Part shown: positions 4,838 through 58,486 of the stretch, piece by piece
Layout of the letters: each line of letters starts with the position of its first letter
Numbering within the stretch: position 1 is the first letter of the stretch
DNA from: a phage
Length of the DNA stretch: 64,000 nt
Assembly: GCA_024613925.1 (NCBI GenBank)
Contig: GCA_024613925.1_4713.1
Reading direction: 5' to 3' (one strand)
Translations under genes and position numbers: made by a program
The notes under the pieces: model-generated
What the model saw: only the letters and a program-made list of their open reading frames with translations
Databases searched by the model: none
Told to the model about the DNA's origin: nothing

Positions 4838-4872
4838 CCTTCTCCCCAACCCGATGAGGGAAGGGGAGAAGG
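4838..4872. terminator. GC-rich stem-loop of the conserved family, between convergent genes; candidate bidirectional terminator
   Basis: CCTTCTCCCC-AA-CCC-GATGA-GGG-AA-GGGGAGAAGG; A8 tract upstream, GGCTATGCG downstream. Confidence 0.5.
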
Positions 4873-11242: not shown

Positions 11243-11330
11243 CACCTAGGTAATGTAAGCGTCAAATTTTTTCTATTCGCAACGTAAACGGCATAGAAAC
11301 CTCCCCCAACCCTTACGGGCTGAGGGAGGC
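11243..11330. repeat. conserved intergenic cassette, copy C (CACCTAGGTAATGTA ... GCATAGAA ... stem-loop)
   Basis: Shares CACCTAGGTAATGTA with copy A and the GCATAGAA-plus-hairpin module with copies A and B; hairpin at about 11299-11329 (CCTCCCCC-AA-CCC-TTAC-GGG-CTGA-GGGAGG). Confidence 0.5.
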
Positions 11331-16095: not shown

Positions 16096-16127
16096 TCCCT
16101 CCTCCAACCCGTAAGGGAAGGAGGAGG
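16096..16127. terminator. conserved-family stem-loop between convergent genes; candidate bidirectional terminator
   Basis: CCCTCCTCC-AA-CCC-GTAA-GGG-AA-GGAGGAGGG; A9 tract upstream, GGTTATGACC downstream. Confidence 0.5.
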
Positions 16128-16144
16128 GGTTATGACCGCTTTGA

Positions 16145-16471: not shown

Positions 16472-16477
16472 GATAAT

Positions 16478-19549: not shown

Positions 19550-19605
19550 GATTGTATCCTCGATTATTAAGAGAAATTTACAATGATAACAGTAACCGCT
19601 GTTAT

Positions 19606-19700
19606 CACCTAGGTAATGTAGTCGTGAAATAAACTGGGGTAATGCGAAATAAGACAGCATAGAACCCTCTCCCAACCCGTAAGGGAAGGGAGAGGGAATA
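19606..19700. repeat. conserved intergenic cassette, copy A (about 90 bp, near-identical to copy B), includes stem-loop 19665-19696
   Basis: CACCTAGGTAATGTAGTCGTGAAATAAACTG ... CGAAATAAGACAGCATAGAA-CCCTCTCCCAACCCGTAAGGGAAGGGAGAGGG-AATAT. Confidence 0.6.
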
Positions 19701-19702
19701 TA

Positions 19703-20335
19703 TCACCAATGATCGAAGGAACCAGGAGTGTTACGAACGATCTCAACTTGGAAGGTTATTGGTACTGATGGCAATGAAACATATTCGCGTTGCGATAGCG
19801 GGACGTTGTCTTCTCGCTCATCGATGCGAGCAGAACCTGTCAGAAATTGGAACATAGCGACTTGAAGCTCATCGGTGAAACGGAGGTACTCACCGATGTG
19901 TGGTGTTGCATCATATCGAATAAGTACGTTGCCAAACCGTCGTGCGATATTTGGAGTATCTGTGAACGAAACAGGGAAATCCAAAGTCATTCCCATCGTT
20001 TCACCTGGCTTCATTTTCCGAATCGACGCAATTGGCACGTCGAAGATATTCCATTCTTCTTTCATCGTGTCTGGAAACACACCGCGATACAAGATGGTCT
20101 TTTGATGACGATGAACGGGTTGTAAACGGTCAACCAATATTTTCAAAGGTTTAAGTTCTTCAGCCAATTCATAATCTGCTTGGATGTTCCACTTTGCCGC
20201 AAGTTCCATTAGGTTGGGATACGCGCTATATTTATTGACGATAGCCCAGTTAACATTACGCAAATCAATAGGAAGGAATTTGATAATTTCCTTGTTGAAT
20301 ATCCATTGGTTTAATTTCTTAATCTCCGAAAGCAT
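19703..20335 (-). CDS. hypothetical protein (about 210 aa)
   Basis: ORF-track start 20434 overlaps the upstream gene by 83 nt; the internal ATG at 20335 lies 16 nt after the upstream stop with a weak AGTGAG RBS. Start uncertain. Confidence 0.5.
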   Translation of the reverse strand: MLSEIKKLNQWIFNKEIIKFLPIDLRNVNWAIVNKYSAYPNLMELAAKWNIQADYELAEELKPLKILVDRLQPVHRHQKTILYRGVFPDTMKEEWNIFDVPIASIRKMKPGETMGMTLDFPVSFTDTPNIARRFGNVLIRYDATPHIGEYLRFTDELQVAMFQFLTGSARIDEREDNVPLSQREYVSLPSVPITFQVEIVRNTPGSFDHW

Positions 20336-20351
20336 GATGTACTCACTACAG

Positions 20352-21719: not shown

Positions 21720-21721
21720 GT

Positions 21722-22327
21722 TTAACGACCCCGTTGCTGTTGTTGAATGATGAATTCTTCGATCTTCGTACCACGGAATTCGCTGTGACGAACCGCTTGC
21801 AGTTGCTCTTCAACGGTTGGGCCTGCATTGAGACCACCACGACGTGCGCGGTTGATGCCGATTTTACGGCGCTGGCCGATTTCACGTAAACGTGAAGATA
21901 ATCCGCTCATTTCGGTTGGGTCTTTAATGCGACCGCGTGCAACGTTCCACAGACCACCCATGAACTCTTCGAGGATACGGCTGGCTTCGAGAGACGGTAC
22001 GCGTGCGTTAGGATCGTTTTCGAGATTGTATTTAACGTATTCCGTGTGTTCCAGAAGAAGCATGAACATCTTCATGGCGTTCACGTCAGGATTTGCGATA
22101 CGCATAGGGACACCGCGAGAATGTTTTTCAGCAGCCTGCGGTACAGTGAGCTGTGCGGGCACCTCTTCGTTCATGGCCATATCGTCGATTTCTGCGACCC
22201 CTGAAGAGTAGACACCGCTGACTTCGTTGGTGTAGTTATCCACCATGAATTTACGGGGAATCCAGAATTCGAATTTACGTTCAAATAGACGTTTGGTTGG
22301 GGTATCTTTAACGTGTTGTAGACTCAT
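21722..22327 (-). CDS. hypothetical protein (201 aa)
   Basis: ORF; start overlaps the stop of the upstream gene. Confidence 0.55.
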   Translation of the reverse strand: MSLQHVKDTPTKRLFERKFEFWIPRKFMVDNYTNEVSGVYSSGVAEIDDMAMNEEVPAQLTVPQAAEKHSRGVPMRIANPDVNAMKMFMLLLEHTEYVKYNLENDPNARVPSLEASRILEEFMGGLWNVARGRIKDPTEMSGLSSRLREIGQRRKIGINRARRGGLNAGPTVEEQLQAVRHSEFRGTKIEEFIIQQQQRGR

Positions 22328-23640
22328 GGTTCAATAGCTCCTGCTCGTAACAGCATGATAACGAACGGTGTGAAATAATAACGATCTAGCGGAGAAAGCA
22401 ACGGTATTGCGTCAACCATCTGTTTTAGTGCTGGATGGCTGATCGCTTTCTCATCGACCATATCACGTACCATACTCTCAATGATCGTCATTGGGGCTTG
22501 ATTGCGGTAGAAAGCCTCTGTGAAAACATAGTACGGATCGTCCGCTACCGATGGAAACAACGGAACGCCGTCATACTCCATCGATGTAAGGTTGGTCACC
22601 AACGGGTTTGTCGGTGGTGTGTTTTCAGGTACAGCCAACTCTTTACCGACGTCTTCACCGAGCGACGTGGTCGCAGGCCACATACAGAACCGCGCACCAC
22701 TAAAACGAATCCCGCCTGCAGCCGGGTATTGATAGAAACGCTTTGTTGACAACAGTGTGAATTTCACCGTCAACCGCGCCTCGTCTTCCCGACGTCCGTC
22801 CATGACCCATTCATAGACAGAAATCGCATTCGCTTCCTGGCTGTCGTCTACGTTAAGACGTCCGAAGTTCCATGAAGGTTTTCCTTCAAGCGACGACCAT
22901 AATTTCGTAAACGCGTTAACGCACCAGGGGTCGTAGGTTGCAGCATCTTGACCAGGAACAAGCAGTGTGTTGAGTTCACGGCTGTAGAATTCATGGTAAT
23001 ACGCGTGACAAAGTCCCAGTGCACGACGGAGATAATCATACTTACGATTGTATTTCTCCGTTGCCATTACGGGATGTTTTCCGTGCTTTAACTGGTCTTG
23101 GTCGTATAGTGTATCCTCAACGATTTTCGCTTCCAGTTCGATAAGCTGTTTTTCGTCAAGAATACGTTGGAAGGAAATATCGCATTCGTAAGCCGGTGCT
23201 AAGCTGATGTTCTTCGGCGTGATTCGGGTGATCGTGTACACCGCGATACGATGATCGAGACCGGAGATTAACAGCATGTTACCTAAAAGAGGAACCGATA
23301 CCGCCGGAAGTACACATGTACCCTCTGATTGAAAACGTGCGGTACCGTTGTCATACGACGGCGTCAATGATGACATTAACTTGATAGGGTAATGTCTGAT
23401 GCGGCGGTACTGCTGTTCAGCGATGTCGCGGTTAGCCTGAAAACTGCTTTGTTCATCATCACGACCGAGAATCTGTTCGTAATAATCGCATTCTACGGAA
23501 TAACCGGATGCGTAATTCACCAGTCCGATTTGACTATTGTATTGCTCATCCACCACCGCAGAACGATAAACATCGTCGCGAGCCTTCGCGGGCTGTTGGG
23601 GGTTGATGATGGGTTTCGCGGGCTTCTTAGCGAGCGCCAT
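22324..23640 (-). CDS. hypothetical protein (438 aa)
   Basis: Long ORF; 14-nt overlap with the upstream gene. Confidence 0.6.
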   Translation of the reverse strand: MALAKKPAKPIINPQQPAKARDDVYRSAVVDEQYNSQIGLVNYASGYSVECDYYEQILGRDDEQSSFQANRDIAEQQYRRIRHYPIKLMSSLTPSYDNGTARFQSEGTCVLPAVSVPLLGNMLLISGLDHRIAVYTITRITPKNISLAPAYECDISFQRILDEKQLIELEAKIVEDTLYDQDQLKHGKHPVMATEKYNRKYDYLRRALGLCHAYYHEFYSRELNTLLVPGQDAATYDPWCVNAFTKLWSSLEGKPSWNFGRLNVDDSQEANAISVYEWVMDGRREDEARLTVKFTLLSTKRFYQYPAAGGIRFSGARFCMWPATTSLGEDVGKELAVPENTPPTNPLVTNLTSMEYDGVPLFPSVADDPYYVFTEAFYRNQAPMTIIESMVRDMVDEKAISHPALKQMVDAIPLLSPLDRYYFTPFVIMLLRAGAIEP

Positions 23641-25192
23641 AGCGTTTCACTCCTACGATGGTACCGACAAGAATTCTCGGCACGAATAAACTACGATGTT
23701 TGAACCACGAAGCGGTTGTTGGGATACGTTTGATGGCTTCGATAAGCCCGATTAGCGTATAGCATCCCCGACTGTTCTTCTTAGGCCAGTACTTTTTATC
23801 TAAACCTAATACCGCAAACAGTTCATCCACCAGATTGGGATAACAACACAACGCTTCAAGTGTTTCAACCTGTAACTGACTTAAATCTAACAGTATCGCT
23901 AGACGAACGTGGTAATCACTCCGTAAGTCTAACGGATCTTTCGCTTCAAGATCACCAACATCGGTTAATGTCCACGCGTCTCTTGCGTAGCGGTATTTAC
24001 CCTTCCAAACCTCAAGGAAAAAAGGAGACTGGTAATGGCATTTTGACCATTCCGGGTACTCACGGAACCACCGAACAAGATCGGGATGGAATTCACCTTC
24101 TTCGGCTAACGAGTCCAACGTCACCAACAGGTTAGGTTGTTCAGGATCGATAGCAAGCAGTGCGGTGAAAAGCGTGCTTGATGGAAGCTCGGTCTCCACG
24201 CTCGATGGAGGCAGCCATTCATCCAAATCGGGATACCGATACGCTTGAATCGACGCACCTTGTTCCGGCAAGAACGAATCACGAAGAATGTCCTGATACT
24301 GCACCACCATACCACCACGACGCGCACGGGATTTATCGCGCACCGAGAGGCTTGGTTTGTAAAGGTACTCTTCGGGGAGTATCTGTTGGTGTACTTGAAC
24401 AGGATACCGTGCTACGATGTGTGTTGGTGTGTCGTACGTGTAACGGTAAGAGAAGGTTGCGTTGTACGAAGAACTGTTCTCGTTCTTCTCTGGCTTCGGA
24501 GCGTCGGTGAAATCAAATTGACCAGAGATCTCTTCTTGCATTTCCCTGATAACCAATTTAACGCTCTTACCGTCACCGGCAACTGTCGTCATGGTGGTTG
24601 CACGGTTGTCGAACCCGTCTCTAAGGTATTCGCTGAACTTATCCCCGTAACCCGCTAATGCTTCTCGGTGTGTGTGAATAACTTTTAACAGCATGAGAAA
24701 CTGTGTTGGGATCGCATAGCTGTATTCAGCGCTAAGAAAGGCAGCGACGTGCTGGCTTGTCAGCAAACGTTTCATGTCATACCACCAACGTTCGGCAGTG
24801 ACCTGATCTTCGAACCGTTTGGTGATCTGCATGGTTGCAACCATCGTACTGTAAACAGGTACCAGCGATACACCAAGGTTACGGTCTTCAAATACGGGAA
24901 GACTGTTTCGTTTGTAAACGGTATCGTACATAGAGGCCTGTTCTTCAGGGACAATGTTAAGTTCAATTTGGATAAACCCGTCAGCAGGCCCTTTTACATC
25001 CTGATCAACAACTTGCGGCGGTTGCTCGTTCGCAGCGCTCATTTTAGCGTGAAGCGCTTCCCCTCGAAAAAGAATGTTCTCCCGATTATAATCCCACCCG
25101 CAAAGCTCGCTGATCTGCCGTAACACCGCGATTGCAACCGGACGTGTTACCGTCGCGTATACGTCATTGATTTTTCGATCAAGTTTAGGCAT
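23627..25192 (-). CDS. hypothetical protein (about 521 aa)
   Basis: ORF-track start is GTG 25219; ATG 25192 has GAGGA RBS and overlaps the upstream stop by 8 nt. Confidence 0.6.
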   Translation of the reverse strand: MPKLDRKINDVYATVTRPVAIAVLRQISELCGWDYNRENILFRGEALHAKMSAANEQPPQVVDQDVKGPADGFIQIELNIVPEEQASMYDTVYKRNSLPVFEDRNLGVSLVPVYSTMVATMQITKRFEDQVTAERWWYDMKRLLTSQHVAAFLSAEYSYAIPTQFLMLLKVIHTHREALAGYGDKFSEYLRDGFDNRATTMTTVAGDGKSVKLVIREMQEEISGQFDFTDAPKPEKNENSSSYNATFSYRYTYDTPTHIVARYPVQVHQQILPEEYLYKPSLSVRDKSRARRGGMVVQYQDILRDSFLPEQGASIQAYRYPDLDEWLPPSSVETELPSSTLFTALLAIDPEQPNLLVTLDSLAEEGEFHPDLVRWFREYPEWSKCHYQSPFFLEVWKGKYRYARDAWTLTDVGDLEAKDPLDLRSDYHVRLAILLDLSQLQVETLEALCCYPNLVDELFAVLGLDKKYWPKKNSRGCYTLIGLIEAIKRIPTTASWFKHRSLFVPRILVGTIVGVKRYGAR

Positions 25193-25568
25193 CGGTGTCG
25201 TCCTCGCTAATTTCCTCACCTCCTTGTTGTCGATATCCGGTATAATGAATCAGACTGCTCTGTAGAAGCTCTTTAACGAGCCCTAGACGCGTTTTATCTG
25301 TTTCATTGGACGTTTCCATTAATGTTTCTATTTCGTTGTTTAAAACAGCGTATAGCGCTTCTAACGGCAATCCTTGGATGATTGGTTTGATGGTACCTTC
25401 CGGTAGTGCCGCAACAGGAATCTGCACGACGGTTTCATGTGCGGTATGTGGGTTGATACGGCAAATATACATACCGGGTACTGAATGTCGCGGGCACGCC
25501 GCTACCAAGCATGTCTGTTGCTGCGCACCGTTAAGTGCGAGTGAAAGAAATTTTGCTTCACGTGTCAT
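25185..25568 (-). CDS. hypothetical small protein (127 aa)
   Basis: ATG with AGGA RBS 8 nt upstream. Confidence 0.5.
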   Translation of the reverse strand: MTREAKFLSLALNGAQQQTCLVAACPRHSVPGMYICRINPHTAHETVVQIPVAALPEGTIKPIIQGLPLEALYAVLNNEIETLMETSNETDKTRLGLVKELLQSSLIHYTGYRQQGGEEISEDDTDA

Positions 25569-25618
25569 CGCAGATTCCTGTTTGAAAGATAAGATATCAC
25601 ATGATGGTCGACAGCATA

Positions 25619-25642
25619 AAGCCCACCCCGAAGGGCGGGCTG
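25619..25642. terminator. short GC-rich stem-loop followed by TTTATGCG (minus-strand reading: hairpin then TTATGCTGTC)
   Basis: GCCC-A-CCC cgaa GGG-C-GGGC with one mismatch; lies between the stop of 25657-29043 and the start of 25185-25568. Confidence 0.45.
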
Positions 25643-25656
25643 TTTATGCGTACGGA

Positions 25657-28600
25657 TTACTTGTAGGCACCGCAATGGGCTTTGATGAGGAAAAGCACCG
25701 CTTGCATCGGTTTATTGAACTGTTGCCATAACGTCAATGCCGGATGGAACAACCAATCTTCCAGGCCAAGAACAATGCCGTAGTTAATGACATTATTAAC
25801 ATCGTTCTCAATGTTGAATTCGCTATCCAGGAATTTATCGATTGAACGCAGGGTCTGCATGGCGTTGTCAGCAATAAGCCAAGCTTCATGCGCTTCACGA
25901 GCCGCACGCAGCACTGCCTCCAGTTCGCTGATAGTAGCTACCGGTAATTCCTCACTGGTGAGGTCGTCAGAAACCGTAAACTGGCGATTGATACCGGTGT
26001 AGATCCACTGCATCAGTTTCGCTGCTTCCTCGTTCGGGTTGTTACGCGTTGTCGCATAAGTCGCGCTCACCTTCACGATGTGCGTTTCACCAAGATACGC
26101 TTTGGAACCAACGCCTTTACGATCGCTGTTTTTCCACGGTTGTACGGTAGCGACCATGAGCTTGTCCCATTTCTGAATAGGAATACGCTTCAGACCAACA
26201 ACCGATCCAGCGGATGTTTCGGACTGGTTGCTCTTCCGCACTTCGCTGAGTTCACGATCGATAGCAACGATTAATTCACGCGTCATGTTACCAAGCATTT
26301 TGATTTCACCCAACGCAGCGATGAGCTTCTTCACATCGGTAACAGGTTCACCACCGATGGTAAGATGACGGATGAAACGTTTCAGAATAATCCGTTCCGC
26401 TGCTGGGTTACCGCGACGCGCTTTAGCCAATGCTTGCTGCGTTTCGGCGAACAGCTTATCCCATGGAGCCGTAGCGGCGGTATAGTAACGGTGGTTGGTT
26501 TCAATCCAGTTACCGATACGGTTGACCGCACTCTTAACGGTATCCATGAATCCTTCCATCGCAATTTCGGTAGCTTCGACGTTACCCTGGAAGTTATCAG
26601 GACCGATCTCACGTGCCGCTACCAGAATACCTTCCACAGCACTCACCGCATGGCGACCGATAGCCAGATTTCGCTGCGCTTCTTCAGCTCGCTCAACGAA
26701 TTCCACCACCGCAGGATCATCAACGATTTCCGCCTCAGCAACAACACGTGTACCGGCATCGCCTTCCAGCGTCTCGATCGTTACAACAGGATCGTTTTCA
26801 CCAGCAACATCCTGGTACTCTTCCTGTTTAAGATCACCGTTATCTGCCGCAGCGATAGCGTTCATTATGCGGATGGTGACCTCACCAAGTTCTTGCGAAA
26901 CGAATCCATAAACGGTGCAAGCAGTCGTTGCGAAGTTCATCAATGTGCGCGTACGCTGCGTGATGTAACGTGCGCCGGATTCGTTTTCCAGTTTATCGAG
27001 ATCCCGGATTAACTGCTCGGCTGTTTCTTGAAGCTGTGTTACCGCCTTCAAGAGATCTTCGTCGAACAGTTTCTTCGATGCATCAACTAACATATCAGCA
27101 TTGACGTTGGATGGTACCGTATCGCCTTGCTGTTTCATCTCGCTCAGCTCATCGCGGAACTTACGGATACCTTCTAAAGCGTCGTCAACGGAATATCCGA
27201 ATGCCTTAACGCCCGCCATTCCGAGAGCTGCTTTCATATCGCCAGGATGTTGAACTTGCTCGCCTTCCTTGCTGTTCTTTAACTCATCGAAATATTGACG
27301 TGATGCGTCCGCAATACGCTTGCTGTCTTTTACTGCGTTAACGATCTTATCAACCGATTTCGAATCGTTTGCAAGTAACGTGTCAAGCTTGTTCCATGCA
27401 ACATCAACTTTCTTCCCGTTGTTAGCCTCGCCCGGCGGTGGAAGCAGCTTCATCACTGGTGTTGTGCGTTGTTCTTTGGTGAGCTTACCAGCTTTCTCTT
27501 CGATTTTCTTTTTATTAACACCGAAAAGTTTTCTTAGGCGCGCCACGATGGCTTTTAAGAACTTCACAACCGCTTCGTAAACCGACTTCAGAATCTGTTT
27601 AAAGCGACCGGGTTTCTTGTCACCGTCTTCCAGATTAAGATCGCTGTTCAGTGCGACATCAAGCTGTTTGTACGATTCCATGATGTATTCGTCTTTGATT
27701 TCAGGACGAATCTCGAAGCTTTCCATCGGACCTTCAGCCGGACGGAATTCCATTTTCAGTTCGCCTTGCAGAGTAGGGTCGACGATGGCGATTGCTTCAC
27801 CCTGACCATCAGCGTTAAAGCGTTCAGCGTAACGAGTACGGCGAACAATAACGCTCTTATCCCCATCAAGACGACGTACCACCATGGTACCAGGAATGTA
27901 TGGTTGTTCTGTTTCAATGACGGTTACATCTGCCTCACCTTCACCGAGAATAACAGATGCGCGCTGCTCAACAACAGGAACATCTAACACACCACGGGCT
28001 TCCAGCTCTTGATGAATTTCGAACGACTCTTGTTTCAGATCTTCATCTTCTTCGTTTTCGTCGTCCTCATCATCGTCACCTTCGGTGTTTTCATCACCCT
28101 CGGTGGTTGTGTCGTCGGTGGCACCAGCGTCAGCGTCGGTGTTAGCAGGTTCTTCGGACGCAGGTTCGGTGGTGTTGTCCTCCGTGGACGACCCGTCAGT
28201 GTTATCGACATCAACATCACCTTGCAGTTCTGTTTCCTGAGCAACTGCTTCGGCTTTCTGCTCACCGGTATTACCGTCATTAGCGTCGACAACAGGTTGT
28301 TCGTCAGCGACGGTATCTTCAACCTTTTCTACTTTCTCCACGACACGTTTAATCACGGTGACTTTGATGGGTTCTTCCGTTGTTTTGGTTTCTGGCGTCA
28401 CCTCGGCTGCCGCAGCCGCTGTTTCAGCAATAGGTTCTGCTTTTTCCGGTTCGACGACATTACCCTTAACACCTTCGGTGGTTTCTGCAGGTTGCGCTGC
28501 CTGTTCGATTTGTGCCGGATTGGTTGGATCGATGGCATTAGCCGCATCCTGAATCTTGTTCTTCAGATTGTCGCGGTCAGCGCTAACGGTTGGGTCATTG

Positions 28601-29043
28601 GTTACTTTCGGTGCCGGTGTTTCGGTCGGTGCGTTTGCCGGATACGGGTTCTTCGGCTCTTCGCCAGGTGCGGTCGGTACCGCGATCAGAACGAACGGTT
28701 GAACGTCGTTACCGTCTTCCATGGTTACACCGCCGTTGCTCGGTGTGAAACGAATTCGCAAACTACCATCGATAGGACGGGTCACGATAACAGCACGCAC
28801 GACATCCTCACCGTTCTCATCCGTGCTACGAATCACGCGAACGGCATCATCAACGGTAGCCCCTTCCTCGAGCGTATCTGATTCGATCGTCGCTTCGATG
28901 CTGTCTGGCCGTGCCGCTGTAGGTAATGCGATCACTTGCTCTTCTTTATCAGTAGAAAGCGTTGCTTTGACTTCGATAGGTGTATCGCTGCTTTCCAGGT
29001 TAAGATGCGACTTACGCATCAGATCAGCTAACGATTTTTTCAT
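25657..29043 (-). CDS. large hypothetical protein (1128 aa) with a central acidic low-complexity region; virion-type candidate
   Basis: ATG with AGAGGA RBS; central region rich in D/E/T/G (for example GDDDEDDENEEDEDL). Confidence 0.55.
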   Translation of the reverse strand: MKKSLADLMRKSHLNLESSDTPIEVKATLSTDKEEQVIALPTAARPDSIEATIESDTLEEGATVDDAVRVIRSTDENGEDVVRAVIVTRPIDGSLRIRFTPSNGGVTMEDGNDVQPFVLIAVPTAPGEEPKNPYPANAPTETPAPKVTNDPTVSADRDNLKNKIQDAANAIDPTNPAQIEQAAQPAETTEGVKGNVVEPEKAEPIAETAAAAAEVTPETKTTEEPIKVTVIKRVVEKVEKVEDTVADEQPVVDANDGNTGEQKAEAVAQETELQGDVDVDNTDGSSTEDNTTEPASEEPANTDADAGATDDTTTEGDENTEGDDDEDDENEEDEDLKQESFEIHQELEARGVLDVPVVEQRASVILGEGEADVTVIETEQPYIPGTMVVRRLDGDKSVIVRRTRYAERFNADGQGEAIAIVDPTLQGELKMEFRPAEGPMESFEIRPEIKDEYIMESYKQLDVALNSDLNLEDGDKKPGRFKQILKSVYEAVVKFLKAIVARLRKLFGVNKKKIEEKAGKLTKEQRTTPVMKLLPPPGEANNGKKVDVAWNKLDTLLANDSKSVDKIVNAVKDSKRIADASRQYFDELKNSKEGEQVQHPGDMKAALGMAGVKAFGYSVDDALEGIRKFRDELSEMKQQGDTVPSNVNADMLVDASKKLFDEDLLKAVTQLQETAEQLIRDLDKLENESGARYITQRTRTLMNFATTACTVYGFVSQELGEVTIRIMNAIAAADNGDLKQEEYQDVAGENDPVVTIETLEGDAGTRVVAEAEIVDDPAVVEFVERAEEAQRNLAIGRHAVSAVEGILVAAREIGPDNFQGNVEATEIAMEGFMDTVKSAVNRIGNWIETNHRYYTAATAPWDKLFAETQQALAKARRGNPAAERIILKRFIRHLTIGGEPVTDVKKLIAALGEIKMLGNMTRELIVAIDRELSEVRKSNQSETSAGSVVGLKRIPIQKWDKLMVATVQPWKNSDRKGVGSKAYLGETHIVKVSATYATTRNNPNEEAAKLMQWIYTGINRQFTVSDDLTSEELPVATISELEAVLRAAREAHEAWLIADNAMQTLRSIDKFLDSEFNIENDVNNVINYGIVLGLEDWLFHPALTLWQQFNKPMQAVLFLIKAHCGAYK

Positions 29044-29058
29044 AAAGCGTTATTCCTC

Positions 29059-30165
29059 TTAAAAGTAATATTTCAGCGCCTCGCGAGAGACATCAAGCAT
29101 AGCCGCTGTTGAATTCGTAAAGAACTCGGCATAGCCCACAAGCGGCACCTTGATCCACGCGGTATACGCTGTAAGGTATCGAGAAAGGGCTACCATAGCA
29201 TCATCAGAAGCAGTAGTAACTGACAACTGACCTTGTTGACGATAAACGTCGTTAAGTTTTGCTTGTAGATTCCCCGCAATTTCGAGTAACTCGTTGGCGT
29301 ACTTTTTACGATGGTAACTAACCAGTAAATCAACACCCTTATTCACAGACTCGAGCAGAATACCAACTTGTTCTAATGTTGGCATTGTAACCACCATATC
29401 CCGTTCAACGGACGGTACATCCTGGACTTCAAACCGTGCGGATTGAATAGCAAGGGACTGTTGAATTGAACCAGAACCTGATGTGGTAACCTGATCGAGT
29501 CGCAGCATACGGTTGCCCAGTAACGTTACGTTGACGAGTCTCGATTCGTTCAGCGTACTGTAGACTTTATGCAATAACGTGTACGCATCACGGTTAATCA
29601 CATCGATTAATGCGGTATCCGTCTGTTTTAAGATAATGTCGAGCGCTCGATCTAACGTATTAGCGAACTGCTTGAAATCATTACGGAACGACGAAGACAA
29701 GAGATATTCAGCGATCGCTAAATTCTGCTTGTATAACGTATTCCCGGTTGTGAAATCGAACCCAAAACTGTTTCCATACCGTAGGTGCGGAGCCAGCGTT
29801 GACGAAGCTTCGAAGCTTTGCGCGATGGGTTTACGACCAACGGCTTTTGTGTAATGACGACGGATGTTACTGAGTTCGAGTTGTAGTGCGCGACTACGAT
29901 CGATAAACCGTGCGATAAACGCGGTAATGTTCCGCAACGTTGTCCAGATTGCATCGATGATAGCTTTGATGATTTTCATCGCAAGCTGATCGTACGATTC
30001 CATTGTGAGGAGATCAGCACTTTCTGTGGTATAACTGGTTGCTGGAATACCGCCTGCTTGCTGATAAATAAGCTGGTGAATTTGTCGTTGCGTTGCTGTC
30101 TCTGGCACAGGTAATGTTTTTAACAAGCTTAACGCTTGAATCTGTCCATCATAGGTCTGCAGCAT
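29059..30165 (-). CDS. head/inner-body-like paralog 1 of 5 (hypothetical)
   Basis: Internal ATG 30165 with GAGGA RBS (ORF-track start overlaps upstream gene). Shares with the next four genes a block of E-[S/G]-[F/Y]-[D/K/G] followed 15-20 aa later by a Trp-containing helix (TMESYDQ...IWTTL). Confidence 0.55.
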   Translation of the reverse strand: MLQTYDGQIQALSLLKTLPVPETATQRQIHQLIYQQAGGIPATSYTTESADLLTMESYDQLAMKIIKAIIDAIWTTLRNITAFIARFIDRSRALQLELSNIRRHYTKAVGRKPIAQSFEASSTLAPHLRYGNSFGFDFTTGNTLYKQNLAIAEYLLSSSFRNDFKQFANTLDRALDIILKQTDTALIDVINRDAYTLLHKVYSTLNESRLVNVTLLGNRMLRLDQVTTSGSGSIQQSLAIQSARFEVQDVPSVERDMVVTMPTLEQVGILLESVNKGVDLLVSYHRKKYANELLEIAGNLQAKLNDVYRQQGQLSVTTASDDAMVALSRYLTAYTAWIKVPLVGYAEFFTNSTAAMLDVSREALKYYF

Positions 30166-31450
30166 TGCTGGTTTCCTCAAGTTCGAGATGCGCGTCAAGA
30201 TAATCATTAAGACCATCGATGACGTCGCAGACAGTTAACAGGAATCGGGCAAAAGCAACCGCCTGGAAGCCGACGACGTTACGCGCGATACCTACACGTT
30301 GAACGATAGCGGATGCTGCGGTATCGCTGTTATCCATCTGTTGTAGCAAACGCTCGTAAGGTTGAATCCATTCGTCCTGGTCGGCAAGGCTTGCTTCAAG
30401 ACAACGCTTAAATTCCAACTGTCGTAACGTCGACCATAACGTACTTAATGCGTTGATGATCGCGCTGGTTCCGTCGATAACATCGTTTAACGGCAAGAAA
30501 CGGAATCCGTCTTTTGCTGATTGGAAAGATACGGCTTCCCACACAACGCTGAATTGCGTTCCTGTTGCGTCTTCGATGTTGTGTAATTTAAGATAGGAAG
30601 CACCAACAGGTACGTCAACGACCAGATCGTCTGTTCCGGTAGGCGTTAACGGCTTCTCGCATAACGCATCGTTGATGACCTCGAGAATATTCTCCCAACA
30701 GGCTTCGTTTTCTGCAGCGATACCTTCTTTGTTATCCGCTGATGGTGCTTTTAGTAGCTGCATTAATAACGGATCAAGTTGACGATGCCATGCTGCGAGG
30801 ATTCCTGTGTTCGTTACGATGTTTTCTGCGGTTTGTCGTAGATCAGCAATACTGCTTACGGCACCGCCTTTCGGATGAAGATATCGCCAGTTGTAGGGAA
30901 AGTTCTCCCAGAATGCGTTATCTTCATTAACATCGTATTCGGAAATAGTTTTCAACGCAGCCGCTTTCTTTAATAACGGCTTCACCTGACGAACGAATCG
31001 ACGATGACAACGATTGCAGATATCGATCGCGTAGCGGTACAATTCGTTCATGTAAAGCCATAATGCTCGGGTTGCTTCTTTTGCGGTCTTGTCAAAACTT
31101 TCCATGTTCAAGCTCATCCCGCCGGAAGTTTCCTCTTCCAGACCCTCGATGATGTGGTTTGGATCCATTCCCATTCCGGCTGCTGCGGTCGATGCGATAT
31201 GTTTGATCGTGCTGATATCGCGTTCTTCAACTTCAGCCATGTTTGGGACAATATCCAGCCTGAGTTTATTTAATGTTTGAAGGTGTTGTTCACCTTCTTT
31301 CATCACCGTGTTTGTTTCGTCGATTGAGTGAAACTGGTTCTCAATATTACTGGCATCGAGAATGTTGCCAGCGATACCGAACGATTCTACAGGTTCATCA
31401 TCAATCCCTTGAAACAACGATGTCATGGGTTGTTGTAACACGTTTTCCAT
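30149..31450 (-). CDS. head/inner-body-like paralog 2 of 5 (hypothetical)
   Basis: AGGAG RBS; acidic N-terminal ~110 aa, then NMESFDKTAKEATRALWLYM block. Confidence 0.55.
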   Translation of the reverse strand: MENVLQQPMTSLFQGIDDEPVESFGIAGNILDASNIENQFHSIDETNTVMKEGEQHLQTLNKLRLDIVPNMAEVEERDISTIKHIASTAAAGMGMDPNHIIEGLEEETSGGMSLNMESFDKTAKEATRALWLYMNELYRYAIDICNRCHRRFVRQVKPLLKKAAALKTISEYDVNEDNAFWENFPYNWRYLHPKGGAVSSIADLRQTAENIVTNTGILAAWHRQLDPLLMQLLKAPSADNKEGIAAENEACWENILEVINDALCEKPLTPTGTDDLVVDVPVGASYLKLHNIEDATGTQFSVVWEAVSFQSAKDGFRFLPLNDVIDGTSAIINALSTLWSTLRQLEFKRCLEASLADQDEWIQPYERLLQQMDNSDTAASAIVQRVGIARNVVGFQAVAFARFLLTVCDVIDGLNDYLDAHLELEETSNAADL

Positions 31451-31557
31451 TTGGGACTCCTACGTAGGAAAATCTTGGCGGGTGATCATGTCCGCCATTT
31501 ACCTTCTGAACCGTTGATTCAGAAGTCAAAAGATAACCGGATACCAACGCCATAAAA

Positions 31558-31590
31558 CCTTCCTCCAACCCAACAGGGAAGGAGGAAGGG
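31558..31590. terminator. conserved-family stem-loop between tandem minus-strand genes
   Basis: CCTTCCTCC-AA-CCC-AACA-GGG-AA-GGAGGAAGG; on the minus strand it is followed by TTTTATGG. Confidence 0.5.
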
Positions 31591-31599
31591 ATATGATGA

Positions 31600-32889
31600 T
31601 TATGCTTTTTCGGTTACAGCATCGAAATATTTCGCTGCGGCAAATACAGCATCTGCATATTGACGGTTAGCAACACGGAGAATCTTAGCTGCTAATACCG
31701 CGCTCAATCGCGCCATTTCAGAAATGGCGCTTATATAAGGGCGAACGGTTTCACGATCTGCTTCCGGTAGATTGTCGAGCATACCGTCCCATTTAGTTTT
31801 AATTTTCATACCGTTTAGTTTAGCGGTACGTTCGACAGTACTCGTTAAACTTTCCGTCTGGTTAAAATACGCAGGGTCAACAATACGAAACGCGTTAAGA
31901 TACGAAGTCAGTGCAGCTTTCAATTCGTCGTCGTTATTGAAAATGTTCGCGTTTTCGATACTACCGGTCGCGGTTTCTTCAACTTCGATCTGAATATTCT
32001 TCACGAGCGCGCAGGCCTTAATGGTATCTTTCTCAGCCAAAAGAGCGTCAAGACCTTTAACAACATATCGTTTCCCACCGCTTTCTGGTATTTTGAGTCC
32101 TTTTAACGCAGGCTTGATAGCGTAAATATAATCGTCCAGAATATCGGCAAGTGTCGTCAAATCAGTTAGTTTATTAACTTTCTTGTTAATGTCGTCAGTT
32201 TGGAGTAGTAAAAAAGCGGATGCTTGTGTGGATGCCGCTAACTGCTCGATATGTTTACGAACCTCCAACGCGTTAACCATTTTTGCGTTAGGGAACATGC
32301 TAATCATATTCCCGGTCGGTTTATTTAGTTGTTTGATGTGACGCTCGCCTTTATTTACAGCGGTTGCAACATCGGTAATTTTTTTATACGCTACCGCAAG
32401 GTTTTTGAAAAGCAGCTGAATCAGTTTACATAACTGTTCAGCCATGTTCGCAATGATTACCCAAACTGCGTATAACGCTTGTGCTGCGCGTTCTTTAAAG
32501 CCTTCCAGTACAATAGCCTGTCCTTCCACCAAACGATCGTCAGCTTGGAACATGTCTTCATCGGACATCCCCAGGTTTGCTGCTGACGTCGAAGCAATCT
32601 GACGGATAAGGGCGATGTCGCTCGCACGTGCTTCCGGGATCGTAGGCGCGATCATGTACGCGGTATCTTCCAGCGTTGCTGAGGTACGCACTGCAATTTC
32701 AGCCAGTTCGCTGGATTCATCGATCGTCTCGTCGGTGCGTCGAATCACCAACTCAACTTCGTCCTCTTCGATTTCTGCGTTGGGATCATTTTGCTCCGCT
32801 GGAATTGTCGCAAGAAGATCTTCGGCGCTCAGCAAAGCGAGTTCGAATGCGTTTTTATTGACGTTATCAAAAAGAGAGATGCGGGCCAT
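31600..32889 (-). CDS. head/inner-body-like paralog 3 of 5 (hypothetical)
   Basis: AAGGA RBS; acidic N-terminal region, then VLEGFKERAAQALYAVWVII block. Confidence 0.55.
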   Translation of the reverse strand: MARISLFDNVNKNAFELALLSAEDLLATIPAEQNDPNAEIEEDEVELVIRRTDETIDESSELAEIAVRTSATLEDTAYMIAPTIPEARASDIALIRQIASTSAANLGMSDEDMFQADDRLVEGQAIVLEGFKERAAQALYAVWVIIANMAEQLCKLIQLLFKNLAVAYKKITDVATAVNKGERHIKQLNKPTGNMISMFPNAKMVNALEVRKHIEQLAASTQASAFLLLQTDDINKKVNKLTDLTTLADILDDYIYAIKPALKGLKIPESGGKRYVVKGLDALLAEKDTIKACALVKNIQIEVEETATGSIENANIFNNDDELKAALTSYLNAFRIVDPAYFNQTESLTSTVERTAKLNGMKIKTKWDGMLDNLPEADRETVRPYISAISEMARLSAVLAAKILRVANRQYADAVFAAAKYFDAVTEKA

Positions 32890-32898
32890 GTTAGTTCC

Positions 32899-34215
32899 TT
32901 AACCTTTGGTATAAGCTTTAACGAGAGTGTTGATAAATGAGGTCAATGCACGAAGATACTGGTAAGCGAACTGGTTTTGAATACGGTTCTCTTTACCGCA
33001 AAGCAGAATCGCGCGCTTAACGAGTTTAGGATAGATCTCGACGTATGGCTGGTAGCTTGCATCAAAATTCTGCTCGTTGAAGCGTTTCATGGTGATTTCC
33101 TGGATGCGCTCCATGGTGCGAATTTTATTGCGAGAGAACATCTCAGAGAAAGCACGTCCGCGTTTTGTTACCATCAACAGATCTTTCGCGAACGTCAGTT
33201 GTCGAACGCTACGCAAATCGTCAGGTGTCGGTAGGACGTACGTTTCCGGATCGCTATCCCATTCAACATCTTCAACGACAATATCCAAGTCGAGGTAACG
33301 TTTAACCGCATCGATGATATTGTCTTTTGACGCATCGAATTCTTTCAAGAAGACTGCACCGTTGATGTAACGGATACGTTTCCCGGAAACCGTTGGAGTG
33401 ATAACGTCAGTACCTTCCACGGAACCGCGATTTTCCAGTGTCGATTTGACAGCGTGCAAGAAAGACAGATAATCAACGGGAAGTTTTTCGACCTTATCTA
33501 AATGGAAGTCGATGATGTTTAATCCTAACCCATCAATAACCGAATAACCATCCGATTTAAGGAACATCTGATTGAAGGTATCGATGTTGCTTTTCAGCGT
33601 GTCTACACCACCAACGCTGTTACGGTTAGGGAAAAGCGTCCGCCACTCCGCTTTAAACGCAACTTCTTTATTTTCCTCGTATTTGCCTTTAGGCATTTGT
33701 TCGAGGGCTGCAACGGCTTTTTGAAAATTGCGCGTCTCGTCGTAAACAAGACGGGTAAGCTTCTCGAAGGCTGCTGCCAAGGTCAGGGCAATATCAACAA
33801 TGATATCCCAGATCTTTTTCATGGCTTTTACAACGGTGTCCTTAAACCCTTCAACAACCAAAGCTTCTCCAACCTCAACACGATCGGTTGGCGTCAGCAA
33901 TGCTTCGGAGGGTAGACCCAGAGCAATCGATGCGGATTCTTGCACGTTACGAACTAATGCAACGTCACTGTAGTTAGCCGATTCGATAGTCGGAGCAACA
34001 TCAAAACTGATTTCCCGTAATGCGGCAACAGCAGGGAAAGCACGATCAAGTGCATCTTCATGTTCGTCGATTGTCGCTAAACGTAATTCAACGCCATCGG
34101 CATCGATAACTTCAGCGGTAGGCTCCACAGCAAGCGCCTCAGCAACAATAGGATCTTTTTCAAACGCCTCAAGGCTAATATCGCCTTGGGTCGCAAATAA
34201 CGGTATGTGTACCAT
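32899..34215 (-). CDS. head/inner-body-like paralog 4 of 5 (hypothetical)
   Basis: ORF-track start is TTG 34239; ATG 34215 has GGAGA RBS. Acidic N-terminal region, then VVEGFKDTVVKAMKKIWDII block. Confidence 0.55.
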   Translation of the reverse strand: MVHIPLFATQGDISLEAFEKDPIVAEALAVEPTAEVIDADGVELRLATIDEHEDALDRAFPAVAALREISFDVAPTIESANYSDVALVRNVQESASIALGLPSEALLTPTDRVEVGEALVVEGFKDTVVKAMKKIWDIIVDIALTLAAAFEKLTRLVYDETRNFQKAVAALEQMPKGKYEENKEVAFKAEWRTLFPNRNSVGGVDTLKSNIDTFNQMFLKSDGYSVIDGLGLNIIDFHLDKVEKLPVDYLSFLHAVKSTLENRGSVEGTDVITPTVSGKRIRYINGAVFLKEFDASKDNIIDAVKRYLDLDIVVEDVEWDSDPETYVLPTPDDLRSVRQLTFAKDLLMVTKRGRAFSEMFSRNKIRTMERIQEITMKRFNEQNFDASYQPYVEIYPKLVKRAILLCGKENRIQNQFAYQYLRALTSFINTLVKAYTKG

Positions 34216-34263
34216 GTGTTGTCTCCAGTAATGATTCAAAAGATAAACCTGAGCGGCATAGAA

Positions 34264-34295
34264 CCCTCTCCCTTCCCTTACGGGTTGGGAGAGGG
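34264..34295. terminator. conserved-family stem-loop with the 14-nt core in the inverted orientation
   Basis: CCCTCTCCC-TT-CCC-TTAC-GGG-TT-GGGAGAGGG; flanks (GCATAGAAC ... GATATATC) match copy 19665-19696, whose core is the reverse complement. Confidence 0.55.
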
Positions 34296-34317
34296 GATAT
34301 ATCAGTTTATTAACTGA

Positions 34318-35655
34318 TTACTGCTGTGCTTTCTTTGCTTCCAGAGCTTCCTTTTTCGCGTAGTATTTCGACTGGATGTGCCCTTTCAGCATTTTAGCAA
34401 CGCCGTCCAGAACAGCGTTACCTGCCTGAACACCGTATTTCATCAGACCGACCTGCGGGTTCACGTAGCAGGAACGTGCGTCTTTCAGTGCAGACAGTAC
34501 AGCTTGAACACGCTGTTTTTCCTGAGCGGAAACATCGCCTTTCTTAGACAGATCGGCTTCCATATCGTCACCGAATTTAACAGCGTCTTTGAAGCCCTGG
34601 GATTTCTTACCGATGGTGCCTTTCAGTGCAATCAGTTTATCAGCCAGTACATCAACGCTGTGAACCGCAGCAGTCAGTTGATTCTGAGACAGAACAGGCG
34701 CTTCAACTTCTTTCGCTTCGCCGGAACGTTCCCAGGTTACTTTACCGTCGTTGGTTTTGAAACCCCAACCAGCCGGGCCAGTAACATCTGCGATCGCCGG
34801 TGCGTTCAGTTTATCAGTGTATTCGGTGTGGGACTTAGATTTGACTAACCCAACGAATTTATCAGCACGATCGTCAGCAGCCTTCATTGCTTTCTCGAAG
34901 GTGTCAGCGATTTTAGTCGCTGCGGTAACCAGATCGTCACCACCGATATAGCCAGAAACGCCGCTACCCAGAGTAACTTTGGCATTTTCAGCAACGCCAA
35001 TACTCTTGCCGATCATTTCTTTCAGTTTAGCAGCACGTGCTTTCAGTTTGGTCGCGCCGTCGAAGATGCGATCCATGAACTTCACGAAGGTTTCCCAGGA
35101 AGTTTTCAGGAAGTTCTTGATGGTTGCCCACAGTTTCTGCCACCATTTTTGTTCTTCCAGGAAGATCATGTTGGTCGCATCGTAACGGGAAGCGGAACCA
35201 CCGAAGCTTTCGAAGGACGGCATGGTTTCCGGCATTTTGAAACCGATAGTACCACACAAACGTTTCAGATTACGCATGTGTTCCTGAGCGGTTTGTGCAG
35301 ACATACCGCCGTCTTTCAGGTAGCTTTCGGTTGCAACAACGGTTTCCGTCAGTTCATCCATGGCTTCATCCATGGCTTCTGCGGTTTCGTCGTCTTTTGC
35401 AATTTCGATAACAACAGCATCAACCTGCTCGATATCACCACGAACTTCGATAGCCAGTTCGGTTTCAGCTGCGGTATCTTCAGCGATTTCAGCACGTTCG
35501 GTCAGTTCAGCCACAACGTTTTCATCCGCTGCTGCAGCATCAGCTGCCGGTTCTGCTTCAACGGTTGCCGCTGCATCCGGATCGATCTCAGCAGCCAGTT
35601 GAACCAGCTGTGCGTTAGATGGATTTGCGACAAGACGATCAAAAATAGAAGGCAT
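34318..35655 (-). CDS. head/inner-body-like paralog 5 of 5; abundant head protein candidate (445 aa)
   Basis: Strong codon bias (long antisense shadow ORFs), TGTAAAGGA RBS region like the capsid-like gene, A/E/D-rich N-terminal ~100 aa, then SFESFGG...WWQKLW block. Confidence 0.55.
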   Translation of the reverse strand: MPSIFDRLVANPSNAQLVQLAAEIDPDAAATVEAEPAADAAAADENVVAELTERAEIAEDTAAETELAIEVRGDIEQVDAVVIEIAKDDETAEAMDEAMDELTETVVATESYLKDGGMSAQTAQEHMRNLKRLCGTIGFKMPETMPSFESFGGSASRYDATNMIFLEEQKWWQKLWATIKNFLKTSWETFVKFMDRIFDGATKLKARAAKLKEMIGKSIGVAENAKVTLGSGVSGYIGGDDLVTAATKIADTFEKAMKAADDRADKFVGLVKSKSHTEYTDKLNAPAIADVTGPAGWGFKTNDGKVTWERSGEAKEVEAPVLSQNQLTAAVHSVDVLADKLIALKGTIGKKSQGFKDAVKFGDDMEADLSKKGDVSAQEKQRVQAVLSALKDARSCYVNPQVGLMKYGVQAGNAVLDGVAKMLKGHIQSKYYAKKEALEAKKAQQ

Positions 35656-35719
35656 AATTTGTTTCCTTTACAATAAATTACACATTAGCTAATGCGGCTT
35701 AAGTGAACCGTCAGCTCAC

Positions 35720-36250
35720 TTAAAAGCCCTTAAAACCCGGTGCCATAGGTTGCCCAAACACCGCATTCAAAGTACATATGATGTCCTGGATGCCATTGTC
35801 CCAATGGAGCCAAGTACGCACCATCTCTTCGTCTGACAACGTGATATAACTCATAAGTTTACCGCTGCTTTCCAGACGTTGGTGCGAACTTAACGACTGA
35901 CGATCCGACCAGTTATCAATCAATTGACCCGCAATCTGAACGTTCGTGTCTCGTCTACCCGTGTGAATGAACCGTAGTGTATCACGGATAAACTCCAGAC
36001 TGGTGAAGTTCAGATTTGGGTTATGGCTGTTCATTTCCACCCAATCGGTGATAGGGTACATCAAACGATAAAGGGTAGAAAGAACCTGACGTTCATATTT
36101 CCAGTCATCGAGAGGAGTACCGTCGACCAGACGCTGATACAAACTAACAACGTCGCGATCGTAGTTCTCCTGGCGTTTTACACCGTTAACCGGAAATCCA
36201 AAGAACCCGGTACCGTATAACGTTAAAGGGACGTCACGAAGTGCATTCAT
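35720..36250 (-). CDS. hypothetical protein (176 aa)
   Basis: ORF; ATGA start/stop overlap with the upstream gene. Confidence 0.55.
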   Translation of the reverse strand: MNALRDVPLTLYGTGFFGFPVNGVKRQENYDRDVVSLYQRLVDGTPLDDWKYERQVLSTLYRLMYPITDWVEMNSHNPNLNFTSLEFIRDTLRFIHTGRRDTNVQIAGQLIDNWSDRQSLSSHQRLESSGKLMSYITLSDEEMVRTWLHWDNGIQDIICTLNAVFGQPMAPGFKGF

Positions 36251-42553: not shown

Positions 42554-42585
42554 CCCTCCTCCTTCCCTGATGGGAAGGAGGAGGG
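42554..42585. terminator. perfect 14-bp GC-rich stem-loop between convergent genes; candidate bidirectional terminator
   Basis: CCCTCCTCCTTCCC-tgat-GGGAAGGAGGAGGG; family variant in which the usual 2x2 internal loop is base-paired. Confidence 0.55.
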
Positions 42586-53755: not shown

Positions 53756-53759
53756 CCGA

Positions 53760-54416: not shown

Positions 54417-54456
54417 GCCCCTCCCCCTGGCGGAAGCCGGAGGGAGGGGTGGGGTT
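54417..54456. terminator. GC-rich imperfect stem-loop between convergent genes
   Basis: CCCCTCCCCCTGGC-ggaa-GCCGGAGGGAGGGG followed by TGGGGTTTATG. Confidence 0.45.
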
Positions 54457-58395: not shown

Positions 58396-58486
58396 GGTAA
58401 TGTAGTCGTGAAATAAACTGCGTTAACACGAAATAAAACAGCATAGAACCCTCTCCCAACCCGTAAGGGAAGGGAGAGGGAATATT
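58396..58486. repeat. conserved intergenic cassette, copy B (near-identical to copy A), includes stem-loop 58449-58480
   Basis: GGTAATGTAGTCGTGAAATAAACTG ... CGAAATAAAACAGCATAGAA-CCCTCTCCCAACCCGTAAGGGAAGGGAGAGGG-AATAT. Confidence 0.6.

Follow-up and report, generated by a model that had tools for sequence, protein, structure and literature searches.

Intrinsic terminators of nucleus-forming jumbo phages are the closest described counterparts of the hairpins analysed here. In phiKZ, 61 intrinsic terminators have been mapped by long-read transcripts and share the motif 5'-BCCYCCCCHWWDGGGRRGGBYTTATKYYGT-3', in which the hairpin is followed by TTAT and not by a U-tract (PMC10914365). The terminator motif of 201phi2-1 has been described as strongly resembling that of phiKZ, and eight of its terminators worked in a reporter (PMC11512511). 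A second body of work concerns the way in which hairpins mutate. Template-switch inversions of the loop have been found in rRNA and miRNA hairpins, where they were called very rare, the rRNA cases amounting to 69 loop-only inversions in a very large data set and involving mostly 4-nt loops (PMC8794818), and template switching at the spacers of inverted repeats is documented in yeast (PMC8604942). The window, by which we mean the whole stretch of 64,000 nucleotides of phage DNA that was analysed, comes from a relative of Escherichia phage vB_EcoM_Goslar, a nucleus-forming jumbo phage to which it is 95.6% identical over the 56 kb that can be aligned, and it carries a family of hairpins that invites comparison with both bodies of work.

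Three copies of one 32-nt hairpin, here called sites A, B and C, had been singled out in a preliminary description, which read the 14-nt core of site B as the exact reverse complement of that at sites A and C, and all three sites read as described. Sites A and C are both CCCTCTCCC AACCCGTAAGGGAA GGGAGAGGG (arm, 14-nt core, arm), and site B is CCCTCTCCC TTCCCTTACGGGTT GGGAGAGGG, TTCCCTTACGGGTT being the exact reverse complement of AACCCGTAAGGGAA (Table 1). The pattern CCCTCTCCC-N14-GGGAGAGGG has three exact matches and one degenerate match in the window, as against 0.01 expected from shuffles. The flanks had been taken to be identical as well, which is true on the left, where GCATAGAA is common to all three copies, but not on the right, where ATATATC is found at two of them only; the right flanks (AATATATC at 19697, GATATATC at 34296 and AATATTAA at 58481) are similar without full identity, and the base that touches the arm is A or G according to the site. 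As the arms form a perfect inverted repeat, a flip of the core alone is indistinguishable from a flip of the whole 32-nt hairpin. Each of the three hairpins lies shortly past the stop codon of a minus-strand ORF and has the next minus-strand ORF downstream of it; placed in this way between successive minus-strand ORFs, the core therefore enters minus-strand transcripts in both orientations, as had been claimed. The minus-strand RNA of site B reads CCCUCUCCC AA CCC GUAA GGG AA GGGAGAGGG, whereas the RNA core of site A is UU CCC UUAC GGG UU, followed by the tail TTCTATGCTGT. The genes on either side of site B are paralogous phiKZ-like internal head protein genes, the PF12699 match of the downstream product being weak and under Pfam's cut-off.

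Table 1. Hairpins of the window and the features next to site B, with positions counted from the first nucleotide of the window
Feature	Position	Strand	Remarks
More distant family member	4838..4872		CCTTCTCCC CAACCCGATGAGGGAAG GGGAGAAGG; identical in Goslar
More distant family member, degenerate	11299..11326	-	ACCTCCCCC AACCCTTACG GGCTGAGGG; minus strand continues with TTTCTATGCCGT
Clear family member	16097..16128		Arms CCCTCCTCC/GGAGGAGGG, core AACCCGTAAGGGAA; between convergent genes
Site A hairpin, clear family member, canonical orientation	19665..19696	-	6 nt past the stop of ORF 19703-20335
Clear family member	31558..31589	-	Arms CCTTCCTCC/GGAGGAAGG, core AACCCAACAGGGAA; flipped form with the same rare arms in two relatives
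Site B downstream gene	32899..34215	-	gp057-like paralogue; start 48 nt past the hairpin
Site B transcribed-strand downstream flank	34254..34263	-	TTCTATGCCG; counterpart of the phiKZ motif tail TTATKYYGT
Site B hairpin, clear family member	34264..34295	-	Arms 34264-34272 and 34287-34295, core 34273-34286
Site B upstream gene	34318..35655	-	phiKZ-like internal head protein, PF12699, E=1.2e-19; stop 22 nt before the hairpin
Clear family member, unique hybrid	42554..42585		CCCTCCTCC TTCCCTGATGGGAA GGAGGAGGG; between convergent genes; then AATATGCTGT
More distant family member, related C-rich/G-rich hairpin with a different core	54417..54450		GCCCCTCCC CCTGGCGGAAGCCGGA GGGAGGGGT
Site C hairpin, clear family member, canonical orientation	58449..58480	-	Then TTCTATGCTGT; 13 nt past the stop of ORF 58494-58949

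When the arms are relaxed, the cassette is seen to belong to a hairpin family with about 17 copies per genome, Goslar also having about 17, of which six clear members and three more distant ones lie in the window. The constant part of the family is the core WWCCC-NNNN-GGGWW, which occurs 21 times in Goslar, with at least eight of the nine flanking arm positions paired at 16 of these occurrences, and the arm variants that distinguish the loci (CCCTCTCCC, CCCTCCTCC, CCTTCCTCC and CATCCTCCC) are compensatory. All 14 Goslar copies that were checked against the annotation lie 5-26 nt past a stop codon, eight of them between convergent genes, and two copies are labelled there as putative terminators. 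A scan of the window with Rfam at gathering score returned no family at the hairpin sites, its sole match being a group I intron at 53742-54067. Pattern matches of the form CCCTCCCCC TTCCCTTAAGGGAA GGGGGAGGG in metagenomes were rejected as family members, these being unrelated perfect palindromes. Dispersed, near-identical intergenic hairpins that stand at gene ends in both orientations and evolve in concert are also familiar as REP/BIME, the host chromosomal elements of enterobacteria that are mobilised by RAYT transposases. Those elements differ from the phage family in sequence and structure, and their changes of orientation are changes of whole elements, not of a core within fixed flanks.

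We predict that the cassette, as a transcription terminator or a 3'-end hairpin, belongs to the type that phiKZ-like nucleus-forming jumbo phages have in common, and that it is used after single genes and, symmetrically, between convergent genes. The window, phiKZ and 201phi2-1 all fall within the Chimalliviridae, and what they have in common is a C-rich 5' arm and a G-rich 3' arm (CCYCCCC...GGGRRGG), a TTATKYYGT tail that replaces the U-tract, and dozens of near-identical copies per genome placed behind stop codons and at convergent gene pairs. The arm pattern BCCYCCCC...GGGRRGGB fits CCCTCTCCC/GGGAGAGGG and the compensatory variants CCCTCCTCC, CCTTCCTCC and CATCCTCCC alike. A YTTATKYYGT tail stands directly 3' of the stem at convergent loci, as CTTATGCTGT and AATATGCTGT, while the tails at the one-way sites are TTCTATGCTGT, with one extra C, at A and C and TTCTATGCCGC at B, sites A to C differing from the phiKZ tail by the extra C (TTCTATG). 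At convergent junctions the tail is present on both sides (CATAA...hairpin...AATATG), and sites A, B and C, which are one-way, conserve it on the downstream side only. The hairpins themselves lie close behind stop codons in the window and between convergent genes at the two-way sites. Within the window TATGYYGT occurs 13 times, six of them directly behind a strong hairpin, among which are hairpins of unrelated sequence at 25618 and 59413. The design departs from that of phiKZ in one element, in that the phiKZ motif has an 8-bp stem closed by a 4-nt HWWD loop whereas the Goslar-type hairpin has a 9-bp stem enclosing a 14-nt module. On the strength of the shared design we class the cassette as a phiKZ-type terminator variant that has the 14-nt core where the 4-nt loop would stand, and it is very probably homologous in design to the conserved terminator of phiKZ.

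A canonical scan of 16000-35900 for GC-rich hairpins with a U-tract (at least 5 T in 8) did not call the hairpins at 16097, 19665, 31558 and 34264, whose tails (TTCTATGC or AATATATC) have no U-tract, and it showed no enrichment in that region, with 16 terminators found and 21.9 expected. The late promoters of phiKZ use TATG (PMC4666361), and a late promoter was considered as the main reading of the TATG flank. It was rejected on two grounds, namely that TATG stands on both sides of the hairpin at convergent junctions, where a promoter would yield antisense RNA only, and that TATG is part of the mapped terminator tail TTATKYYGT. The ChmC eCLIP paper reports no hairpin motif, and flipping of the phiKZ motif is not reported in the literature on phiKZ-type terminators that we examined.

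The 14-nt module consists of a 2x2 AA/AA (or UU/UU) internal loop, a 3-bp CCC/GGG helix and an R-N-N-A tetraloop. It takes the form AA-CCC-RNNA-GGG-AA or TT-CCC-TNNY-GGG-TT, and inversion of the loop alone was seen in 0 of 107 copies. Both orientations fold into the same structure, with RNA folding energies of -25.9 kcal/mol (UU/UUAC) and -25.2 kcal/mol (AA/GUAA) and DNA folding energies of -12.8 to -13.6 kcal/mol. The preliminary description had offered, as an alternative to flipping, that selection acts on the structure of the DNA or RNA and not on the loop sequence, and the equality of the energies makes this largely right; the loop, however, is not free of sequence constraint, because it is always R-N-N-A on one strand. 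That strand is the one bearing AA, position 4 of the tetraloop being invariant, and as the rule holds whichever strand is transcribed, it amounts to something other than a plain GNRA loop of the mRNA. The mismatch, AA/AA or UU/UU, persists in 127 of the 128 copies. Such retention contrasts with what template switching should tend to do, which is to perfect the stem. Taken together, the R-N-N-A constraint and the retention of AA/AA show that selection acts on more than pairing. Within these bounds the tetraloop is hypervariable, with 0.125 differences per site at a flank divergence of 1% and a plateau near 0.31, while the arms scarcely vary in comparison; among 10 contigs in which the neighbouring protein is 100% identical, we found five loop variants and one flip.

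The comparison of orthologous loci covered some 10 to 30 Goslar-like genomes. Scans for the pattern in viral and metagenome collections yielded seven further near-complete Goslar-like genomes and many smaller contigs, and every copy was placed on Goslar coordinates by its flanks and oriented to the Goslar plus strand. The Goslar orthologue of site B is CCCTCTCCC AACCCGTGAGGGAA GGGAGAGGG, which lies in the same flanks with the core in the opposite orientation, and therefore two phages that are about 95% identical differ by an inversion there, the copy in the window being the flipped form relative to Goslar and most relatives. The census comprised 107 copies and one hybrid, with 76 copies of the AA...AA form and 31 of the TT...TT form. 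Among the 12 loci sampled in at least four of about ten Goslar-like genomes, both orientations were present at 10-11, and the only uniform locus was that at Goslar 27746. Site B is split 6 to 4, the flipped copies being those of the window, OGZS01000006, V3300011560 and JACXXQ010000003. Neighbour-joining trees built from either flank of site B put the flipped copies in three separate positions, and on them the flipped V3300011560 adjoins the unflipped QZLZ01001353 at a left-flank divergence of 1.3%. At 16097 the cores of the window and V3300045988 are exact reverse complements within flanks that differ at 5 of 599 positions. A further 20 contigs, ten covering site C and ten site A, were retrieved because the protein encoded next to the hairpin is 100% identical to the window's, and each set of ten contained one flipped copy. 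The protein beside site C is indexed in 115 blocks, and public metagenomes by now contain more than 100 Goslar-like genomes. The preliminary description had proposed such an alignment of orthologous loci and had held that fixation of every locus, with orientation tracking phylogeny only, would speak against flipping; nearly all of the sampled loci are polymorphic, and at site B orientation does not follow the trees of the flanks.

Short-read assemblies do break at these hairpins, and two SRR13871261 contigs end inside the hairpin of site B, so that the flip could be suspected of being an artefact of assembly or sequencing at a palindrome. We regard this as scarcely credible. The flipped allele of site B is shared, together with its flank haplotypes, by the independent assemblies of the window, OGZS01000006 and SRR13871261, the same holds for ERZ1643250 and ERZ1026903 at Goslar 93445, and the isolate genome of Goslar itself contains both orientations. 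Polymorphism within single samples, as read from metagenome contigs, was also considered and was rejected, since the repeat itself accounts for contigs that break at the hairpin.

How often two orthologous copies stand in opposite orientations is independent of flank divergence. Among pairs in which the larger flank divergence is below 2% (mean of both flanks 1.0%), 5 of 12 were opposite, and in the bins of higher divergence, with means from 2.5% to 15%, the fraction was 0.27 to 0.40. Orientation is thus saturated already at about 1% divergence. Under a two-state model this corresponds to a flip rate per hairpin of about twenty or more times the per-site substitution rate, a rough figure, since the genome pairs are phylogenetically non-independent and frequent phage recombination blurs the count of events. 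Orientation is biased about 3:1 relative to the asymmetric flanks and, as this bias persists despite the apparent saturation, is perhaps not neutral in the strict sense. The base beside the 3' arm is more often G in flipped copies at three loci.

The bias bears on a reading in which selection maintains the core as a variable module at the 3' ends of chimallivirus mRNAs, and in which a phage or host factor reads the orientation of the core and its R-N-N-A loop. Such a factor might bind or process RNA, export it from the phage nucleus, or act in defence, in mRNA stability, or in termination or antitermination. Diversifying or frequency-dependent selection would then maintain both the flipping and the turnover of loops, or else these would tune directional termination at convergent genes. 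A core that is far more variable than its surroundings, as in the 10 contigs above, and yet so tightly constrained in its loop and mismatch is what this reading would lead one to expect, as is the 3:1 bias. Nevertheless the folding energies are equal, orientation at one-way sites does not depend consistently on which way the gene is transcribed, there is no known factor that would read the core, and the same data are explained by a mutational hotspot in which purifying selection guards a few positions; we consider a selected module improbable. Were it true, the behaviour of 3' ends would be diversified or tuned for each gene separately by rapid flipping, which might take place within single populations.

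Segments that invert between inverted repeats are well known from the G segment of Mu (Gin), the C segment of P1 (Cin), Salmonella hin and E. coli fimS. These segments span hundreds to thousands of base pairs, are turned by dedicated recombinases at specific crossover sites, and switch gene expression. The phage core likewise exists in two orientations between inverted repeats, which is what a programmed switch worked by a site-specific recombinase on the 9-bp repeats, after the manner of the Mu, P1 and Salmonella G/C/H segments, would produce. In this case, however, the segment of 14 bp is far too short for two recombination sites to synapse on duplex DNA, its inversion moves no coding or promoter element from one side to the other, and the repeats are the 9-bp C/T-rich stem shared with the terminator motif, dispersed in some 17 copies. 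Nor was a recombinase domain found in the six flanking ORFs or annotated among the CDS features of Goslar, and a recombinase-driven programmed switch is very unlikely. The earlier suggestion that the segment between the arms can flip is supported, in that the segment does invert in place between genomes, with the caveat that neither a conventional recombinase nor double-strand recombination can invert so short a segment. For a 14-bp segment between 9-bp arms, which has no conventional route of inversion, a template switch during replication or a short-patch conversion is therefore plausible.

We propose a model in which template switching at a phiKZ-type terminator produces micro-inversions that recur and are nearly neutral, and this is in our judgement a moderately probable explanation of these observations. 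The growing DNA strand would jump to the complementary strand at one arm, copy the core backwards after the jump, and return at the other arm. The whole module, bounded by the 9-bp arms, has given way to its own reverse complement as a single unit many times over, and a strand that returned early would yield an asymmetric product like that at 42554. The flip would persist and be nearly neutral because both orientations share their fold and energy. As in inversions attributed to template switching elsewhere, the sequence enclosed by two short perfect inverted repeats gives way to its exact reverse complement while length and fold are kept, and the change recurs independently; the asymmetric products that now and then perfect the stem there have a candidate counterpart in the hybrid at 42554. 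Indeed, the core is swapped in place for its exact reverse complement with length and arms unchanged, and this one-step change of several bases is repeated between very close relatives. Furthermore, both orientations occur with the rare arms CCTTCCTCC (31558 in the window, 61009/61041 in Goslar), and at Goslar 93445 the rare AGCA loop is found both ways round within CCCTCTCCC arms; rare arms and loop that are kept through flips support an event in place. Kelchner and Wendel are said to have described 'minute inversions' of this sort at chloroplast hairpins in 1996. What differs from the inversions in rRNA is that here a structured core of 14 nt flips at nearly every one of a dozen loci.

The hybrid TTCCCTGATGGGAA at 42554 forms a perfect 14-bp stem of -31.8 kcal/mol and is the sole partial product among 128 copies. 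On a left-flank haplotype that it shares with the window at 42554, V3300011560 has the allele AACCCATCAGGGAA; the hybrid's left AA and loop are the reverse complement of that allele, and the hybrid's right AA is unchanged. This asymmetry rules out a reciprocal exchange between the arms, and it could have arisen either from a template switch that returned early or from a partial conversion tract. The second possibility belongs to a reading in which flips are short-patch gene conversions between hairpin copies that pair antiparallel through their palindromic arms, the donor being either that copy's counterpart on a sister molecule or any one of the approximately 17 hairpins of the genome, and orientation being reshuffled in the course of concerted evolution. 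The hybrid also agrees with TTCCCTGATGGG in the Goslar copy at 237246, whose arms are identical to its own. A set of eight or nine loop variants is found over and over at many different loci, and loop identity is 36% within a locus and 38% between loci. The sharing of non-GTAA loops by both orientations at one locus was not above permutation (P=0.41). Loop variants were accordingly rejected as locus-specific markers, which leaves single cases as the informative ones. Replacement of whole hairpins is seen at orthologous loci. At Goslar 93445 the arms are CCCTCTCCC in Goslar, ERZ1643250 and ERZ1026903 and CCCTCCTCC in other genomes with the flank unchanged, and similar swaps occur at Goslar 61041, 97883 and 174266. 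Such arm swaps, together with loops common across loci, imply that exchange between copies also happens, and it could flip cores without a switch in place.

Against conversion as the origin of the flips, homology amounts to just 9 bp per side, rare locus-specific arms and loops are preserved through the flip at 31558/61041 and 93445, and the arms are shared in 86 of 109 opposite pairs. Loop sharing within genomes shows no significant excess (P=0.23), for which reason concerted evolution within genomes was rejected as a pattern in these data. We take antiparallel short-patch conversion to be a serious rival for at least some of the flips, although as the general explanation we think it rather unlikely.

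Neither the phiKZ-type terminator design nor hairpin-templated micro-inversion is new as a kind. What is new is their combination, in which a structured 14-nt module lies inside a terminator stem and its inversion is polymorphic at a dozen loci among genomes a few percent apart. Limited literature searches returned no report of such frequent core inversion for phage terminators. A search joining 'loop inversion' and 'intrinsic terminator' gave no match, and PMC5941160 is silent on both inversions and terminators. If template switching is what inverts the cores, these hairpins are a natural example of a high-rate, hairpin-templated process in a virus, for which a dozen independent loci in dozens of public genomes serve as replicates. 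They may accordingly be of use in measuring template-switch mutagenesis, and they give warning that alignments, phylogenies and assemblies of jumbo phages can be misled at such sites. Finally, the family extends the phiKZ-type terminator design, as a predicted function, to the chimalliviruses of E. coli, and it separates the parts of that design that are invariant (the arms, the TTATG tail, the AA/AA bulge and R-N-N-A) from those that are free, which are the orientation and the two middle bases of the loop. This division may be used for testing termination without a U-tract by phage RNA polymerases and for building two-way terminators.

We propose that the junctions of gene-module recombination in these phages may fall preferentially at the putative terminators, a reading drawn from sequence comparison of the window with its relatives. 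Mosaic breakpoints fall at the hairpins, namely at the site B hairpin (window 34264) and at its orthologues. At site B, the divergence between the window and the jumbo phage Goslar is 3.3% to the left of the hairpin and 9.5% to the right, and that between two Goslar-like metagenome contigs, V3300011560 (core flipped at site B) and QZLZ01001353 (core unflipped), is 1.3% to the left and 11.3% to the right. The window's flipped orientation at site B is also found in Logan run SRR13871261, in which two contigs encode proteins identical to those of the two genes flanking the site and break off within the hairpin itself. The phage of the window, or a nearly identical one, is probably present in this run. 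Among 128 copies of the hairpin a single hybrid was identified (Table), in which the left side of the core reads TT and the right side AA, so that the stem pairs perfectly over 14 bp. This copy, which is flanked by convergent genes, may represent a flipping intermediate that became trapped.

Sites A and C, the hairpins at 19665-19696 and 58449-58480, have in common not only the hairpin but also about 55 nt downstream of it, a stretch that stops at the start of the next gene and includes ACATTACC, similar to the phiKZ middle-promoter motif AAanTTACc (PMC4666361). Together, hairpin and stretch look like a duplicated unit of terminator plus promoter or leader, as judged from the sequence, and the same unit is also present in Goslar at 49716-49816 and 86689-86760. 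The motif TATGCYGT also lies directly 3′ of hairpins unrelated in sequence, and the shared signal seems to be the tail rather than any particular stem.

Features of the window
Feature	Position	Strand	Sequence or context
Shared downstream stretch, sites A and C	19590-19664 and 58375-58448	-	TTCTATGCTGTYTTATTTCG..TTA.C.CAGTTTATTTCACGACTACATTACCT
Unrelated hairpin, then TATGCYGT	25618	-	CAGCCCGCCC TTCG GGGTGGGCT
Unrelated hairpin, then TATGCYGT	59413	-	
Unrelated hairpin, then TATGCYGT	11295	-	
Hybrid hairpin	42554-42585		
210-aa ORF	19703-20335		between site A hairpin and gp048 homologue
Group I intron	53742-54067	+	Rfam RF00028, 73.4 bits, E=9.5e-17

Most of window 17622-20352 has no alignment to Goslar, the exception being a 157-nt match at 19545-19701. 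The 210-aa ORF has no aligned counterpart at the corresponding Goslar position in the window-Goslar alignment, and 48 blocks of the public assembly index list a protein identical to its product. The group I intron region corresponds to Goslar ~82.5-82.9 kb and lies just beyond gp068, a DNA polymerase fragment, and gp069, a NUMOD1/HNH endonuclease (Goslar gene names). As the only group I introns annotated in the Goslar record are elsewhere, at 169269-169645 and 211817-212245, the polymerase gene looks like a third intron-split gene.

A perfect palindrome, CCCTCCCCC TTCCCTTAAGGGAA GGGGGAGGG, occurs in unrelated metagenome contigs such as Ga0187886 and Ga0316616, often adjoining 'ctaacc'-like repeats; its letters match those of the phage hairpin, but its flanks have no similarity to Goslar, and we rejected it as a relative. 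Goslar-like genomes, 234-247 kb in size, turn up commonly in public metagenomes, one of them (ERZ920133) labelled human gut, and the 151-aa protein neighbouring site C is found in 115 blocks of the public assembly index. Public metagenomes are a large untapped data set on Goslar-like phages.
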